Positions 26,258-36,272 of a DNA stretch of 64,000 nucleotides are shown here, piece by piece. Every line of letters begins with the position of its first letter. Position 1 is the stretch's first letter. The notes under the pieces are model-generated. The model was not told the DNA's origin. It worked only from the letters and a program-made list of their open reading frames with translations, and did no database searches. A program made the translations under genes and the position numbers. Source of the stretch: Candidatus Hydrogenedentota bacterium (GTDB lineage: Bacteria > Hydrogenedentota > Hydrogenedentia > Hydrogenedentales > SLHB01); the NCBI GenBank assembly GCA_963745075.1, contig CAVUWV010000017.1, forward strand, positions 96,001 through 160,000, given 5' to 3'.

Positions 26258-28336
26258 TTGATTTCGAGTCGAAAACTACTCGCCGGACTCAATCCGGAGC
26301 AAGCGGAAGCGGTCCGTCAGACGGAAGGTCCGGTCCTCATTCTCGCCGGCGCCGGCAGTGGCAAGACGCGCGTGATCACCCGGCGCATCGCCTATCTTAT
26401 CGCCGAAGGGATTGCGGAGCCCGAATCCATTCTGGCGTTGACCTTTACCAACAAAGCCGCGGAAGAAATGCGCGTCCGCATTGCAGAACTGGTCGGCAAG
26501 AAGACTGCCGACCGTCTCGTTCTGTCCACGTTTCATTCGTTCTGCTTGCGCGTATTGCGCACCGAATGTGATCGCATCGGGTATCGCCGGAATTTCACGG
26601 TATCCGGCGAGTCGGATACGCGGACGCTGGTCCGCCGTATGCTTGACGACATTGCGGACGTGAAAGAGAGCTTCAGTCCGGCCATCGTGCTCGAACGGAT
26701 CAGCTTGGTGAAATGCGGTAAGGCGACACTGGATGCCAACGGTACGACGACAAAGAGTGAGGTCGAGTCCGCGACGGAAGCGAAGTACGGCAAGTGGCTG
26801 CCCGAGTTTTACCAACGGTATCAGTCGGCGTTGCGGGCGTCCAATACCATGGATTTCGACGATCTCCTCGGGCTCACATTGAAACTGTGGCAGGAACACC
26901 CGCGCGTGCTGGCCCGATATCAGAAGCAGTATCGGTATGTGATGGTCGACGAGTACCAGGACACCAATCACATCCAGTACGAATTGCTGTCCGCACTCGT
27001 CGCGGCGCACCGCAACCTGTGTGTCGTCGGCGACGACGACCAATCTATCTACGCCTGGCGAGGCGCGGGGATCGAAAACATCCTCGACTTCGAGCGGGAG
27101 TATCCGAAAGCCCACGTCGTCCGGCTCGAACAGAACTATCGCTCGACGACGACAATCCTCGATGCGGCAAACCACGTCATCCTGAACAACCGGGAGCGGC
27201 GTCCCAAGAAACTCTGGAGTGACCTCGGCGAAGGCCGAGTCATCGACTGGATCGTCACGGGGGACGAAGAACACGAAGCCAAGGAAGCCGTGAACTGGCT
27301 TGGCCACATCGTCCAGCGGTCCAATGCGGAATTCGGCGACTTCGCCTTGTTGTACCGGTCCAACCAGCAGTCCCGTCCCCTGGAAATCGCCTTCCGGCAA
27401 GCGGGCATCCCGTACGAAGTGTATGGGGGGCAGGACTTCTTCGAGCGCAGCGAGGTGCGCGATGTGGTGGCTTACCTGCGTACCATCGCCAATCCCCGGG
27501 ATGAGTCGGCCTTTCTCCGTGTGGTCAATGTTCCGCGGCGCGGCATTGGGGACGTCACCCTGCACGAAGTGCACGAACTGTGCCGGGCCGAATCCCTGAC
27601 CCTCGGAAAAGGGCTGGCGGCGGCGCTGGCCCGTCAGAAAGTCTCCAGCCAGGCGGAAGCCGGTATCCGTACGTTTCTCGCGGTACTGACCGAGTTTCGG
27701 CGGCGTTTTCGGGAGTGCGATGGGCGTTTGGCCGAAACCCTCGAAGCGCTCCTCATGCGGATCGCCTACCGCGCCGAACTCGTCCGAACCAGCAAGACTC
27801 CCGACCAAGCCTCGGTTCGTTGGGCGAACGTCGAAGCGGTCGTCGCGGCCATGGCCGACTACGAACGTTCCACGTCCCATCCGACCCTGAGCGGATTCCT
27901 CGATCAAAGCTCTCTCGATACGTCCGACATCAAAGGACGCGGGCGGGAACGGCGCAAGGATGCGGTGTCGCTCATGACAATTCACAGTGCAAAAGGGCTG
28001 GAGTTCCCCTTCGTCTTCGTGATGGGCGTGGAGGAAGGGCTACTGCCGCACGACAAGTGCGTGGGCGAACGGGCCGTCGAAGAAGAGCGCCGTCTGTTTT
28101 ACGTGGCACTGACACGCGGAAAGCGCCATGTGACGCTATTCGAAGCCATCTCCCGCGTGCGCAACGGGCGGGAGCGCATGGCGTCGACCAGCCGCTTCGT
28201 CAAGGAGATTCCCGAGTCCCTGGTGAATCGTCACATCCGGGCCGCGCACGACATGGTGCGTGCTCGCGTCGAGCCACCTGCGTTGAAGACGCGCCGCGGC
28301 AAGCCTAGGGCATCGACTCGCAGTCGAAAGCGATAA
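26258..28336 (+). CDS. ATP-dependent SF1 DNA helicase (UvrD/Rep/PcrA)
   Basis: AGAGSGKT, TFTNKAA, VDEYQDTN, GDDDQSIYAWRGA, LEQNYRS, MTIHSAKGLEF, EERRLFYVALTR. Confidence 0.95.
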   Translation: MISSRKLLAGLNPEQAEAVRQTEGPVLILAGAGSGKTRVITRRIAYLIAEGIAEPESILALTFTNKAAEEMRVRIAELVGKKTADRLVLSTFHSFCLRVLRTECDRIGYRRNFTVSGESDTRTLVRRMLDDIADVKESFSPAIVLERISLVKCGKATLDANGTTTKSEVESATEAKYGKWLPEFYQRYQSALRASNTMDFDDLLGLTLKLWQEHPRVLARYQKQYRYVMVDEYQDTNHIQYELLSALVAAHRNLCVVGDDDQSIYAWRGAGIENILDFEREYPKAHVVRLEQNYRSTTTILDAANHVILNNRERRPKKLWSDLGEGRVIDWIVTGDEEHEAKEAVNWLGHIVQRSNAEFGDFALLYRSNQQSRPLEIAFRQAGIPYEVYGGQDFFERSEVRDVVAYLRTIANPRDESAFLRVVNVPRRGIGDVTLHEVHELCRAESLTLGKGLAAALARQKVSSQAEAGIRTFLAVLTEFRRRFRECDGRLAETLEALLMRIAYRAELVRTSKTPDQASVRWANVEAVVAAMADYERSTSHPTLSGFLDQSSLDTSDIKGRGRERRKDAVSLMTIHSAKGLEFPFVFVMGVEEGLLPHDKCVGERAVEEERRLFYVALTRGKRHVTLFEAISRVRNGRERMASTSRFVKEIPESLVNRHIRAAHDMVRARVEPPALKTRRGKPRASTRSRKR

Positions 28337-28373
28337 AAAACAAACGGACTGCGGCTTCACACCGCAGTCCGTT
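28335..28373 (-). terminator. Intrinsic terminator downstream of the peptide cluster (possibly bidirectional with the helicase)
   Basis: 12-bp stem AACGGACTGCGG/CCGCAGTCCGTT with a 7-nt loop; the A-tract on + is a U-tract on -. Confidence 0.75.
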
Positions 28374-28427
28374 CGAATCACCATTCAAGCGCCGGTCGAA
28401 CCGGCGACTCTACTTTCGAATACCAGA

Positions 28428-28637
28428 TTACTGGCCGTCAATGACGCCGTTGCCGTTCCGGTCACCCAGCAGCCCTTCGGGCAGCAGGGTCCCGCCGAAC
28501 AGCCAGCCCCACCACTTCTCCATGGTCAGGCCGATGACGACGACGATATCCGTCAAGCTCATGATGTCAAAATAGTTTCTCGGCACCTGATAGGCGGTAG
28601 CCGGAAGCGCCTTCGAAACGCGACCGATGTGCTTCAT
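28428..28637 (-). CDS. Small MKH-leader peptide P1 (69 aa)
   Basis: TAAGGAGGT SD; MKHIGRVSKALPATA-YQVPRNYF...WWGWLFGG...GDRNGNGVIDGQ. Confidence 0.75.
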   Translation of the reverse strand: MKHIGRVSKALPATAYQVPRNYFDIMSLTDIVVVIGLTMEKWWGWLFGGTLLPEGLLGDRNGNGVIDGQ

Positions 28638-28761
28638 GTTCCTTAAACCTCCTTAAGGTTTGTATCCCGGTTGAAACGCATTTACGAACCCCGCCGCCCC
28701 GCGAATGCGGGACGAACTTCAACCCTGGGGTGCCCATGCCGGGCGCGAACCCGGTGGGCAG

Positions 28762-28920
28762 TTACACGTCTCGGGGATCCAAGGAGCCGTTGGTGAACCA
28801 AAGCTGATTGATGTAGTTGGTCTTGGCACCAGTACCCTTCAGCTCACCGCCCTTACCGAACCAGCCGAACCACCAAGCGGTCACCGGCGCATTCTTCGAT
28901 ATCTTGCGAACGTGTTTCAT
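28762..28920 (-). CDS. Small MKH-leader peptide P2 (52 aa; not in the ORF track)
   Basis: My translation: MKHVRKISKNAPVTA-WWFGWFGKGGELKGTGAKTNYINQLWFTNGSLDPRDV*; AAAGGG SD; alternative ATG at 28926. Confidence 0.72.
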   Translation of the reverse strand: MKHVRKISKNAPVTAWWFGWFGKGGELKGTGAKTNYINQLWFTNGSLDPRDV

Positions 28921-29097
28921 TGTCATTTACCCTTTCGCGAAACACTCCCATTGCACACAGGCATGGGTTGTTTTTTCCAATCCGTTGTCAATAGGAGCTT
29001 CGTTCGCGGAAGCCTTGGAATGGATAGATACCGGAGCTATCCCCTCCATCTCTCCTTCCGCTTTTACCCTCACGGGATTGTGTCATTGATTCGAATC

Positions 29098-29250
29098 CTA
29101 GCTCTGCAGCCAGTTATCGAATAACGCGACGAGCCAGTTCTGTTGCGCAGGACGCAACTTCAACGGCCCAAAAATGTTCTTCAATTCGACCCACGCGACC
29201 TGCTCGGCACGCACGGGCTTTTCGGTCGACAGCACCTTCACATGCTTCAT
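29098..29250 (-). CDS. Small MKH-leader peptide P3 (50 aa)
   Basis: AGGGAGGTGA SD before ATG 29250; MKHVKVLSTEKPVRA-EQVAWVELKNIFGPLKLRPAQQNWLVALFDNWLQS. Confidence 0.75.
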   Translation of the reverse strand: MKHVKVLSTEKPVRAEQVAWVELKNIFGPLKLRPAQQNWLVALFDNWLQS

Positions 29251-29414
29251 ATGGCGATTCACCTCCCTTCTCCTTCCGTCTTGTTGTTGGTTGGAAACCA
29301 TTTCCCAATCCGCTTGGTCCAAACAATTGACCTGTCTGTACCCCTTATTGTGAACGATTTGATCGCAATAAGCAACCCCTTGTGGGTGTCAACAACGGCG
29401 GGCACCGTATGTGC

Positions 29415-30986
29415 TTACTGCGCCCCGTTCAGCGAGATCCCCATCCCTCGCAAATAATCGAAGAGTGAGAGGTCCCCGGATTGCAGTATCCACCCGGAAA
29501 TCATGTTGAGGAAATCGGTTCCGCTCTGACTGGAGAAGAGCTGATCCAACTCTTGGAAGAACCCGCCCAACTGGTCGATGCTCGTGACCAGGTCCGCCGT
29601 TTGTGACGTTAACTGATCGATTCCCTCAGGAGATTCAATTGTTGTGTAAAGCTGTTCAAGCACATCAATTGCGGCCGCCTGCATATCCAGTCCGGCCAAT
29701 TGCTCCTGAGAAAGAGACGCCCCGGTCTCCACCTGCTGGCCCAACCGCTGTACGGCCTGCGCAATGTCTTGGGCGGTATTGTAATCCCCTACCGCCATAT
29801 AGTCTTGGCCGTATTCTAGCAGATTCTTCCCTAGATCGCAAAGGAAATTGTACTGATCCACTCCCGCTGTCAACGCGGATACGGCCTTGGCCTGATCGGC
29901 CGGAAGCCCGCTTGCCATAAGCGCTTCCGCCTTTGCCATCGCCGACTCCAGCGAATAGGCGCTGGCCGTGGGCAGCGTCTGCGCGATCCGCAACGCTTCC
30001 AGCGCCCCGGCGAGGTCGTTCTGTTCCAGCCGAAGCTTCGCTTCCAGGTAGTAGGGCAAGGCGTTATTGGGATCGAGCGTATGGAGCGTCGGCACTTGTT
30101 CGAGGGCTTGCGTCTCCGATTCCGGCGTCGCGGTCTCGTCCAACGCTTTTGCCAATTCAAGCTGAGCGGGCGCGTTGTCTGGCACCTGCCCCACCACCGT
30201 CAACAACACTTGAGCCGCTTCTTCGCCCGTAAGCGATTCCGCCGCCCCCAACTTCACCTGAGGCGACGAATCCGGACTTCGAGCCAAGTCGATTGCCTCC
30301 TCTTTCTTGAGGCTGGCCCATTGCATCAGGCGGCTTATTCCCCGGCTGTCATTCGACGCGTCGCGCCGTGCCGCCAGGATTTCGTCCATCGTCGGCGTGT
30401 CCAGCGCAGGGCTTTCCGTAGCTTCCATCTCGCCCGAAGGCTGTCCGGACCGCGTCTCGTCGGGGATTCGTTTGCGCTTCTCATCAAACTGCTTGAGCCG
30501 AGTCGCGATCGTGGTGTCCAGTTGAGGCGTTGGCTCGATGGCGCGTTCTATCGGAGTCTTCTCCGGCGTAACCAATTGATTGCCGCCGCCGGGCACGTTC
30601 GCCGGCGTTGGAACTTCTTTGAACAGCACGTACCCCAGCAAGGCGAGAATCGCGGCCGCCGCCGCCGCTACACCCAACCAGGTCCGGCCACGCTCCCGCC
30701 GGCGCGCGCGTTCGGCATCGATGGACACAATCTTCTCGGGACGATTGGCCTGAGCTACGGTGTCCATGACGGATTCGACCAAGTCGACCTGAGGTGTCTT
30801 GGAGGCAAAGGCGCGGCCCATGGCATCCAAGTCCGCGTAAGCGGACTGTAGCCACATGTGCTCCCGGCGATACGCGTCCGACGAAGCGATTTGCGCTTCC
30901 ACGCGCCGCGCCTCCTCGGGGCTCAACTCGCCCTCCAGGAGAGCCAGTAGCTCTTCCTGGATCTTTTCCAGTTCCCCAGTGTTCAC
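29415..30986 (-). CDS. Membrane-anchored anti-sigma factor with a large helical/TPR-like extracytoplasmic domain
   Basis: N-terminal LLEGELSPEEARRVE (anti-sigma domain lacking HxxxCxxC), one TM (WLGVAAAAAAILALLGYVLF), LDPNNALPYYLEA TPR-like; 4-nt overlap with the sigma gene. Confidence 0.7.
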   Translation of the reverse strand: MNTGELEKIQEELLALLEGELSPEEARRVEAQIASSDAYRREHMWLQSAYADLDAMGRAFASKTPQVDLVESVMDTVAQANRPEKIVSIDAERARRRERGRTWLGVAAAAAAILALLGYVLFKEVPTPANVPGGGNQLVTPEKTPIERAIEPTPQLDTTIATRLKQFDEKRKRIPDETRSGQPSGEMEATESPALDTPTMDEILAARRDASNDSRGISRLMQWASLKKEEAIDLARSPDSSPQVKLGAAESLTGEEAAQVLLTVVGQVPDNAPAQLELAKALDETATPESETQALEQVPTLHTLDPNNALPYYLEAKLRLEQNDLAGALEALRIAQTLPTASAYSLESAMAKAEALMASGLPADQAKAVSALTAGVDQYNFLCDLGKNLLEYGQDYMAVGDYNTAQDIAQAVQRLGQQVETGASLSQEQLAGLDMQAAAIDVLEQLYTTIESPEGIDQLTSQTADLVTSIDQLGGFFQELDQLFSSQSGTDFLNMISGWILQSGDLSLFDYLRGMGISLNGAQ

Positions 30987-31624
30987 AAATCGTCCTTTGC
31001 CGACTGATATACGTCCCGCAGCGACTTCAGGATGCGGTGCAGTCGGGTTCGCACCGCGCCCTCCGTGCTGCCGACGATTTCCGCAATATCGCGTGCCTGC
31101 ATCCGTTCAAAGAACCGCAAGGTCACGATTTCCCTGGACTCATGATCGAGCGAGGCCAGCGCTTCCGCCAACAACTCATAGCGCTCGGCCATCATGAGAA
31201 GCCCATCCGGCCCGTCTGCCGGCGACTGCAACACCTCGCCGGTCTCCTCCCGGGCGCTGCTCGCGTATTCCTCGAGGGATTCCATGGGTACCGCCTTCTT
31301 GCGCTTCAACTCGTTCAGACAAAGGTTGCGCGCGATGCACAGTACCCAGGGGCGAAACTTTCGACTCGCGTCGAACCGCGCCCGGGCCACATACACGCGG
31401 ATGAACGTTTCCTGGGCCATTTCCCGGGCCCGTTCCACGTCCCGCACGTAGTGGAGGCAGAATCTGAAAATGTCGTTCTGGTACCGGTGTACGAGCGTGC
31501 CCAGAGCGTCCGCCGTGCCCTCGCACAGGAGGACCATCAGCGCCTCATCGGTTTGAGTGCTCGCGCTCAACCGGTAATCCATTGCCGGTAACGAGTTACG
31601 AGGGCCTTGCGGTTTCGTTGCCAC
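30983..31624 (-). CDS. ECF sigma-70 factor (start may be 31582)
   Basis: TDEALM, AQETFIRVY, FRPWVLCIARNLCLN, EIVTLRFF..M...IAEIVG..EGAVRTRLHR. Confidence 0.92.
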   Translation of the reverse strand: MATKPQGPRNSLPAMDYRLSASTQTDEALMVLLCEGTADALGTLVHRYQNDIFRFCLHYVRDVERAREMAQETFIRVYVARARFDASRKFRPWVLCIARNLCLNELKRKKAVPMESLEEYASSAREETGEVLQSPADGPDGLLMMAERYELLAEALASLDHESREIVTLRFFERMQARDIAEIVGSTEGAVRTRLHRILKSLRDVYQSAKDDL

Positions 31625-33242: not shown

Positions 33243-33271
33243 TTGACAAGGGTTTTTCCCTATGCTAGACT
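33243..33271 (+). promoter_or_regulatory. sigma70 promoter
   Basis: TTGACA-17 nt-TAGACT with a TG extension. Confidence 0.65.
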
Positions 33272-33326
33272 GCCGATGCTCGCAAGCGGAAGCGTTGTAT
33301 CTCTTTATAATGGAGAGGAGGGTCTC

Positions 33327-33710
33327 GTGGGAATGTTCAAGAAATCCTGGGTGTCGTTTTTCGCGCTGGTGCTGGTGGCTGCGGTCGTGATTACGCCGTT
33401 GGCCGTCGTCGCGGAAAGCTATGACCCCGATCAGGAAATTCCCGCACCGACCGGTTTCGAAAAGCGGCTGACCAAGCTGGGCCGGGGCCTGTCCAACGTA
33501 TTGCTGGGCTGGGCGGAAATTCCGGTGACCTTCGATGAGAAACTCAAGGAAGGCAAGCCGCTGGGATACCTCGTCGGCGTGGTACCGGTACTCGGCACGA
33601 CCCGCGCATTCCTCCGTACGGGTACGGGCGTGTTCGAGATGGTCACGTTCCCGGTGTCCGACCTGGAAGTCAATTTCGAGCCGATCCTGGAGCCCGAGTA
33701 CATCTTCTGA
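33327..33710 (+). CDS. Exosortase system-associated protein, TIGR04073-like
   Basis: Signal peptide, then KLGRGLSNVLLGWAEIP...R...GVFEMVTFP...ILEPEY; GGAGG SD; start GTG 33327 or ATG 33333. Confidence 0.75.
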   Translation: MGMFKKSWVSFFALVLVAAVVITPLAVVAESYDPDQEIPAPTGFEKRLTKLGRGLSNVLLGWAEIPVTFDEKLKEGKPLGYLVGVVPVLGTTRAFLRTGTGVFEMVTFPVSDLEVNFEPILEPEYIF

Positions 33711-36098: not shown

Positions 36099-36272
36099 CT
36101 AATCGGCGCAGCTTCCGCCGCCCTTGGAACACTTGATGCAGTCCGCGAGACTTGGCACGCCGAAGAGGGGGTATTCGCCGGCCAGGAACCCCCTGAAGCA
36201 ATCCCAAAGGTTGCTTCCGACAGCCAATGCCGGCAGCCGCTTCATCCTGGTAACACGCTTTACATGACTCAT
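36099..36272 (-). CDS. Small MKH-like leader peptide P4 (57 aa, four Cys)
   Basis: GGAGG SD before ATG 36272; MSHVKRVTRMKRLPALA-VGSNLWDCFRGFLAGEYPLFGVPSLADCIKCSKGGGSCAD. Confidence 0.68.
   Translation of the reverse strand: MSHVKRVTRMKRLPALAVGSNLWDCFRGFLAGEYPLFGVPSLADCIKCSKGGGSCAD

Follow-up and report, generated by a model that had tools for sequence, protein, structure and literature searches.

A three-gene operon of leader-bearing small peptides in Hydrogenedentota, predicted precursors of lysine-acylated exported peptides

The window analyzed here is a 64,000-nucleotide stretch of a 6.8-Mb Hydrogenedentota genome (labeled G000, with its contigs given C-numbers), and contains a cluster of three small genes on the minus strand. 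P1 (29098–29250) encodes 50 residues, a 15-residue leader followed by a 35-residue core with a conserved Lys24 and an amphipathic C-terminal helix. P2 (28762–28920) encodes 52 residues, with a Trp-rich core of 37 residues that contains Lys23, Lys28 and Lys33. P3 (28428–28637) encodes 69 residues, and its 54-residue core consists of a hydrophobic stretch and then a single lysine, Lys41. An earlier sequence-only reading of this DNA had described three co-oriented open reading frames (ORFs), each with its own Shine-Dalgarno (SD) sequence, and all three are found on this strand, with SD matches of 7 (P1), 4 (P2) and 9 (P3) bases. The SD of P2 is weak, as its match is only 4 bases long. P2 had also been described as missed by the ORF track; the mechanical ORF list does show it, but from an ATG six bases upstream. 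Since this upstream ATG is absent from most relatives, we place the start of P2 at MKH.

The leaders align in exact register, as had been noted, with 6–8 of 15 residues identical in each pair. Also in agreement with the earlier description, the three leaders have no Sec-type hydrophobic region (best 7-residue hydropathy 0.10–0.76), no double glycine and no RR motif. The cores diverge as described: the core-family profiles of P1, P2 and P3 lack mutual similarity (hhalign probability 0.15–0.53%). Common ancestry of cores was not found in the wider set either, where none of 28 core-family pairs exceeded 2% probability in profile comparison, and a C-terminal motif proposed to be shared by P1 and P2 was dropped for that reason. 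The cores contain three (P1), four (P2) and three (P3) tryptophans and no cysteine; the label "Trp-rich" therefore fits this trio but not the wider family, in which the family-weighted W is 0.027. Scans of the three peptides against Pfam and NCBIfam gave nothing significant, a P1 profile had no matches among PDB sequences, and an ESM Atlas search returned unnamed hypothetical clusters only.

The three genes appear to form a separate operon of 1 kb, flanked by an ECF sigma/anti-sigma pair on one side and a convergent helicase gene on the other. The pair consists of an ECF-type sigma factor (30983–31624, minus strand), identified by a library scan, and an anti-sigma factor-like membrane protein (29415–30986, minus), the conserved upstream neighbor of P1. 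A predicted sigma-70-type promoter of the trio (29347–29375, minus) has a −35 element TTGCTT (29370–29375), a 17-nt spacer and a −10 element CACAAT (29347–29352). A consensus promoter scanner did not pick up this site; its two hexamers stand out as the conserved island when 15 upstream regions are aligned. The SD of P1 (GGAGGTG, 29260–29266, minus) is invariant in 15 of 15 aligned loci. The P1–P2 spacer (28927–29097, minus) is conserved in sequence and contains two long hairpins (folding z −2.5), in which two-sided change is seen in just one of 37 pairs. Hairpins (z −2.7) and the strong SD of P3 occupy the P2–P3 spacer (28638–28761, minus). An intrinsic terminator with a 15-pair stem and a U-run (28341–28375, minus) closes the trio and also faces the convergent gene of a UvrD/PcrA-like helicase (26258–28336, plus), named from motif recognition in its translation. 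Rfam gave no match at the trio locus. A word, CGGAAGGAGA, recurs upstream of P1 (29267–29280, minus) and after P1 in most relatives; together with the conserved, stably folding P1–P2 spacer, it possibly represents a site of post-transcriptional control.

A fourth family member in the window (36099–36272, minus) encodes 57 residues with an MSH-variant leader, four cysteines and two core lysines. The same ORF is present in three of five genus relatives, with a DNA match in all five, and it sits opposite in strand to recF and the gene before gyrB. A small exported-looking protein encoded at 33243–33710 (plus) has no Pfam match; we take its sequence to resemble exosortase-associated proteins.

As read from their substitution patterns, the trio genes are real and under purifying selection. 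Pooled dN/dS is 0.09 (core) and 0.29 (leader) for P1, 0.27 and 0.19 for P2, and 0.40 and 0.08 for P3 (5–9 orthologues each, in pairs that all share G000 and are not independent). The earlier term "hypervariable core" does not hold in this light: the cores of the trio differ from one another, yet each belongs to an orthologue family that is inherited vertically and kept by purifying selection, a pattern that speaks against a bacteriocin-type arms race. In all three genes, synonymous divergence is lower in the leader-coding DNA (compared at 29206–29250, 28876–28920 and 28593–28637) than in the cores (pS 0.22–0.41 versus 0.39–0.63), suggesting RNA-level constraint at the gene starts. A public collection contains P1, P2 and P3; their 90% clusters comprise 42, 12 and 13 members, respectively, and are named only "hypothetical protein". 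Seventeen sequencing runs recorded as RNA hold part of the stretch. RNA-library contigs from four runs in four studies (90–100% alike) cover the trio partly or wholly, carrying neither strand nor level, and one of them extends from the trio into the anti-sigma gene; this evidence excludes run shares below 0.2 and uncovered contig flanks.

Orthologues detected with a P1 profile occur in 31 of the 53 further genomes of the family, compared to one of 81 outside it. The anti-sigma gene directly precedes P1 in 27 of these 31 genomes (coordinates compared by hand), and the peptides follow it in 14 of 26 informative loci (29 fetched), in the order P1-P2-P3 where the contig reaches. Such adjacency favors a signaling role, in which the trio would feed the neighboring ECF sigma/anti-sigma pair and its products would be sensed by an outer TPR-like domain. 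The anti-sigma protein does have weak TPR matches (E 0.03–0.4), and a CAAX protease is implicated in processing a Streptococcus signal peptide in the available part of PMC9298176. However, the anti-sigma gene is found in 47 of the 53 family genomes, compared to 31 for P1, and within one genus, three genomes carry the two on different contigs. The trio is preceded by a predicted promoter of its own, other family members elsewhere are flanked by unrelated neighbors, and the cores are near-identical between species, making them poor kin-specific signals. We consider signaling to be quite unlikely.

The view of the trio as part of a leader-core precursor family is borne out, with about 18–20 members in G000 and hundreds across the phylum. 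A strict motif search of the 6.8-Mb genome hits six places, all of them short SD-bearing ORFs, while a looser motif hits 28 places compared to five in the reversed genome. With a leader matrix trained on 170 peptides, none identical to those of G000, the top 20 matches include 18 short SD-bearing ORFs, and degenerate candidates follow lower down. Three small SD-bearing ORFs with degenerate leaders (G000:C8:504945, C10:16121 and C9:115753) are probably additional members. Two members (G000:C12:70659-72139 and C10:123141-131100) adjoin genes of exported or outer-membrane-type proteins, named by motif recognition.

Across 135 genomes of the phylum, the DNA pattern MKH[ILVM]xx[ILVM][STCR-like] has 782 matches, compared to 52 (summed by hand) in the reversed control; roughly one in three of these matches does not represent a small gene, as 22 of 60 were rejected. 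A stricter pattern applied to 185,579 species genomes (GTDB) detected 96 loci, 64 of them with accepted peptides. Accepted peptides are present in 52 of 80 titled loci, whose titles are Hydrogenedent- (34, all the loci so titled), Nitrospir- (15), FCB group (2) and uncultured (1). Three accepted loci with non-Hydrogenedent titles were checked for GNATc, the conserved GNAT of the cassette described below, which is present in two and gave no match in one. The fifteen Nitrospiraceae/Nitrospirales-titled records with peptides (L110, L117, L132, L137 and others) look like misnamed Hydrogenedentota, and GNATc was also found in two that were tested. Two Bacteroidota leader matches were rejected, as they represent another frame of an RNA-binding-protein gene and are without GNATc.

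The leader had been considered undescribed, which proves half correct. Its residues 1–7 resemble the leader of SCIFF peptides (ranthipeptides), while its PxxA end is new. Two SCIFF genes were fetched; one starts with MKHVMTL, matching family residues 1–7, and its leader ends in GG, and the other starts with MTHVTTL. We therefore describe the leader as a SCIFF-like head with a new PxxA tail, the likeness being a short start pattern, too short for a profile match. The PxxA end was proposed to be a processing or recognition site, and it is the likely place of processing. In P1 relatives, the leader always ends in Ala, followed by a variable residue, and across the family several different residues (Q, E, A, D, G, V) come after the predicted cut. 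Ala or Val occupies position −3 in 83% of peptides, a figure (like the site logo) that is partly circular, since the site itself was assigned by that pattern. Most leaders are 12–16 residues long, and GG occurs between residues 9 and 25 in 10 of 198 peptides. The P-[AV]-x-A end would fit signal peptidase I, as well as the CPBP protease introduced below.

The sequence-only reading placed the maturation and export machinery outside the window, and named peptidases, RRE proteins or ABC transporters as co-occurring partners to look for. A candidate cassette with all three, in the form of a CPBP protease, a CteB-like RRE protein and an ABC-2 exporter, is located on another contig (G000:C20:133684-140571). 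It starts with two MKH peptides, followed by three GNATs, the CPBP protease, the ABC-2 ATPase and permease, and a 641-residue CteB-like protein. The order is the same in 20 of 20 further loci across the phylum, most of which have two GNATs, and MKH peptides lie directly upstream in 18 of the 20. Of 135 phylum genomes, 124 encode the 641-residue protein, in single copy, and 116 encode GNATc. The trio is very probably served by the remote cassette.

A peptide encoded next to the GNATs (L014:16258 and relatives, 20 sequences) belongs to a phylum-wide family whose members have a short leader (RA|DA) and an invariant Trp, and may be an ancestral substrate or a regulator of the cassette. The genes plsX, yceD and fabG, which face the cassette in G000, were considered as support for fatty acylation; this link was rejected because plsX and yceD occur at only one of 20 other cassette loci, and a fabG-like gene at one other.

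Peptides and cassette also appear to have been lost together. In family f7, nine genomes (72–97% complete) have no full match to the CteB-like enzyme, with a weak match in one, and no GNATc. They contain 10 pattern matches in all, compared to about six per genome elsewhere, and the seven inspected (in three of the nine) are internal Met residues, long proteins or SD-less frames rather than peptides. This co-loss represents one lineage, not nine independent events. As a counter-case, two peptides are present in a genome (60% complete) in which no cassette was found; a second genome has four peptides and GNATc with no enzyme match. These patterns bear on an alternative in which the leader stays uncleaved and serves small cytoplasmic or membrane proteins as a docking tag, its link to the cassette being incidental. 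The trio and the cassette do lie on different contigs, and cleavage and export are predictions from sequence. An uncleaved tag nevertheless seems extremely improbable, given that peptides with the same leader head the cassette at 18 of 20 loci, that the two disappear together in f7, and that an invariant leader-end Ala is followed by a variable residue in P1 relatives.

The best PDB match of the 641-residue protein, by sequence and by predicted fold, is CteB (PDB 5WGG), and its C-terminal domain is SpeG-like. It has the RRE-barrel-SPASM architecture of the CteB type plus a fused GNAT domain. The CxxxCxxC motif of radical-SAM enzymes is absent at 21 of 21 cassette loci. In a search of 1.84 billion representatives, none of the 37 long top matches has this motif, compared to 86 of 88 long, ordinary lower matches. 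Judged by these sequences, the relatives of this protein are a discrete group without the radical-SAM motif. Its score against TIGR03974 is 77.7, compared to a cut-off of 425. The Aux I cysteines are lost, while C394, C397, C403 and C426 are invariant; by analogy with CteB, we take these to be the Aux II-type SPASM cysteines. Three RRE residues, D30, E63 and E67, are kept in 27–28 of 28 sequences, compared to 53–79% of 77 active relatives. The CteB counterparts of these residues are reported by Grove et al. (2017) to contact the N-terminus of the leader; a literature passage naming the leader-contacting residues of CteB was not found. According to the accessible text of PMC6231123, the CteA leader binds the CteB RRE by extending its β-sheet.

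The RRE also carries a conserved Cys-rich segment, CFCFEC (residues 24–29 in L014:9688-11610), which is absent from active relatives. Three divergent relatives without CxxxCxxC (P0044, P0040 and P0074) keep some of the Aux I cysteines; the first two have a GNAT domain, and P0074 has another C-terminal domain. They are possible intermediates in the loss of radical chemistry, as far as their sequences indicate. No genomic loci were found for P0044.

The most consistent feature of the cores is lysine. A set of 198 distinct peptides (32–73 residues) was compiled with leader, SD and length as the only criteria. A Lys beyond residue 18 is present in all 198, compared to 98 with an Arg, counts in which related peptides are not independent. 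Seventeen loci had been set aside as outside the phylum by title or frame; five of these would have passed the filter, and one, an ORF from another phylum (L138), has no Lys. Weighted by 42 core families, the K/R ratio is 5.0; the corresponding values are 0.54 for the proteome, 0.57 for signal-bearing proteins and 0.63 for other small ORFs. Every one of the 42 families contains Lys, which holds for no other residue; the composition of the cores themselves would predict 4.6 families without it (P about 0.004), and proteome windows 15–16. A core Lys was predicted beforehand for 60 untouched places, and all 35 new accepted peptides have one, many of them being relatives of known families, as do six further accepted peptides. 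Other small ORFs of G000 contain Lys 87% of the time, although they are longer.

In the trio, Lys24 of P1 is present in 24 of 25 family members, and the column of Lys33 in P2 is Lys in 77% of 22, while Lys41 of P3 is kept in close orthologues only, the Lys being elsewhere in distant relatives. In cores with a single Lys, it follows the more hydrophobic side in 46 of 55. No fixed sequence motif was found around the core Lys, and at least two Lys are present in 138 of 198 peptides. The cores have a net charge of zero or below in 83% of cases, 36% contain a 15-residue hydrophobic stretch, and 150 of 186 are free of Cys.

The cassette GNATs fall in the Pfam family Acetyltransf_3. GNATc is conserved (46–71% identity), with invariant N135 and S138, and is the sole cassette GNAT with the N-x-x-S motif. 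Among solved structures, its closest relatives are the spermidine acetyltransferase SpeG and AAC(6'), both of which acylate primary amines. GNATa and the fused GNAT domain are without N-x-x-S and may be structural rather than catalytic. The third GNAT (L014:14803-15378) is a duplicate of GNATc without N-x-x-S, present in G000 and about 16 related genomes. The CPBP protease appears intact: E125, E126, R130, H166 and H204 are conserved, with the EExxxR, FxxxH and distal His motifs all present.

These features suggest the following pathway. The RRE of the radical-dead CteB-like protein would bind the MKH[VIL]xx[IVL][ST] strand of the leader, and the scaffold would present the core to the SpeG-like GNATs, which would N-acylate the side chain of the core Lys with an acetyl or longer group. 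GNATc is the likeliest catalyst, as the only GNAT keeping N-x-x-S. The CPBP protease would then cut after P-[AV]-x-A, and the ABC-2 transporter would export the resulting peptides, 35–54 residues long, neutral to acidic, and hydrophobic or amphipathic. We consider acylation of the core Lys reasonably probable. The reading as a whole, in which the trio is a three-gene precursor operon for one phylum-wide, leader-dependent pathway encoded by the remote cassette, has in our judgment a slightly better than even chance of being correct.

The GNATs might instead acylate the new N-terminus after cleavage, following the logic of goadvionin and lipolanthine, with the Lys serving as a charge anchor or cell-wall cross-link. 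Acetyltransf_3 includes the RimJ/RimL N-terminal acetyltransferases, according to the part of PMC13647313 at hand some RiPPs are N-terminally acylated once their leader has been removed, and a Lys otherwise used would suit its location within the last 12 residues in 142 of 198 peptides and at the C-terminus in 18. The diversity of the residue after the cut does not favor such a reaction, the RRE-GNAT fusion hints at modification with the leader still attached, and the best structural matches of GNATc act on polyamine and aminoglycoside amines. We regard N-terminal acylation as unlikely.

Under the lysine-acylation pathway, the exported peptides would act at the membrane or surface of the producing cell, as housekeeping components rather than weapons. 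Such an envelope role, to which we assign slightly less than even chances, fits better than killing, because the cores are mostly neutral or acidic and their inheritance is vertical. A bacteriocin-like antimicrobial function would be in line with the Trp-rich amphipathic cores, and with a protease and a dedicated ABC exporter, a combination also present in the streptolysin S cluster (described in the consulted part of PMC4513790). We find it very unlikely, given the charge of most cores, an operon without room for an immunity gene, a single-copy, near-universal cassette whose precursors are positional orthologues, and no Pfam or NCBIfam match of the peptides. A bolder proposal, which we rate as rather doubtful, is that the phylum rebuilt a ranthipeptide maturase into the non-catalytic leader reader of a Sec-independent, lipoprotein-like pathway, with fatty acylation of Lys by SpeG-like GNATs, cleavage by CPBP and export by ABC-2, yielding an abundant core component of the envelope.

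The core Lys, kept in every related peptide examined, suggests that these are exported, lysine-acylated peptides of a kind not yet described. If this prediction is correct, a RiPP-type pathway would be core machinery of a phylum, unlike patchy secondary-metabolite clusters, and a radical-SAM maturase would have been retained purely for substrate recognition. A 15-residue tag directing Lys acylation of unrelated cores of 20–55 residues would also offer a compact means of acylating peptides at a chosen site. With the Lys rule, an "unknown modification" comes down to one question that mass spectrometry can address. Cluster-mining tools are expected to miss these precursors because they are tiny, dispersed and annotated as hypothetical. 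A description of the system was not found in the full-text literature, with subscription journals mostly outside this scope, and supplements of mining papers could list the cluster. The main text of PMC10866078, on Hydrogenedentota genomes, does not mention RiPP, bacteriocin, peptide or radical SAM; its supplements could likewise list it.

Several known systems resemble parts of this pathway. The Sec/signal peptidase I signal peptides share a basic N-terminus and a P-[AV]-x-A end, but have a hydrophobic h-region that the short trio leaders lack. Double-glycine class II bacteriocins have a GG leader, a C39-peptidase ABC transporter and an adjacent immunity gene; the trio leaders are without GG, the C39 family (PF03412) has one weak match in G000, on another contig, and no further ORF was found in the trio operon. 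The streptolysin S module (SagE, SagGHI) is similar in combining a membrane protease, SagE being a member of the CPBP family, with a dedicated ABC exporter in one operon. However, the cassette has no azole-forming enzymes, the cores are not rich in Cys or Ser, and their sequences do not indicate cytolysis. PMC4513790, as far as its consulted text goes, proposes that a membrane protease removes the streptolysin S leader ahead of ABC export.

The SCIFF/ranthipeptide system (CteA, PF13165; CteB/ScfB, TIGR03974; PDB 5WGG), whose defining features are taken here from the available sections of PMC8172795, shares the leader start MKH[IV]xx[LIV], a maturase with RRE, partial TIM barrel and SPASM domains, and lineage-wide conservation. 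In contrast, the cassette enzyme has neither the radical-SAM motif nor the Aux I cysteines and is fused to a GNAT, and GNATs, CPBP and ABC-2 are added to the system. SCIFF cores have about six Cys, while the trio cores have none; the SCIFF leader ends in GG, while the Hydrogenedentota leader ends in PxxA and is shared by many dispersed precursors. PF13165 has no match in the trio peptides and none above cut-off in G000.

GNAT acylation of a Lys side chain is established for the selidamides, according to the portions consulted of PMC8784127 and PMC13647313. The class is defined by a fatty acyl group that a GNAT installs on a core Lys or Orn side chain; in kamptornamide, phaeornamide and the nostolysamides, the core Lys is acylated by a GNAT before leader removal, as predicted here. 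Selidamides differ in having an NHLP or Nif11 leader and a GG site, neither of which is found in the trio leaders (no Pfam match), and their clusters contain a lanthionine synthetase or arginase, which the cassette lacks. Their GNATs are of the PF00583 type in the accessible part of PMC8784127, compared to the SpeG-like Acetyltransf_3 type of the cassette. The leader head and the CteB-type reader are known, while the PxxA end and the predicted chemistry are new. As predicted from its genes, the system is reminiscent of a selidamide pathway on a ranthipeptide chassis; it fails defining tests of both and is filed under neither.
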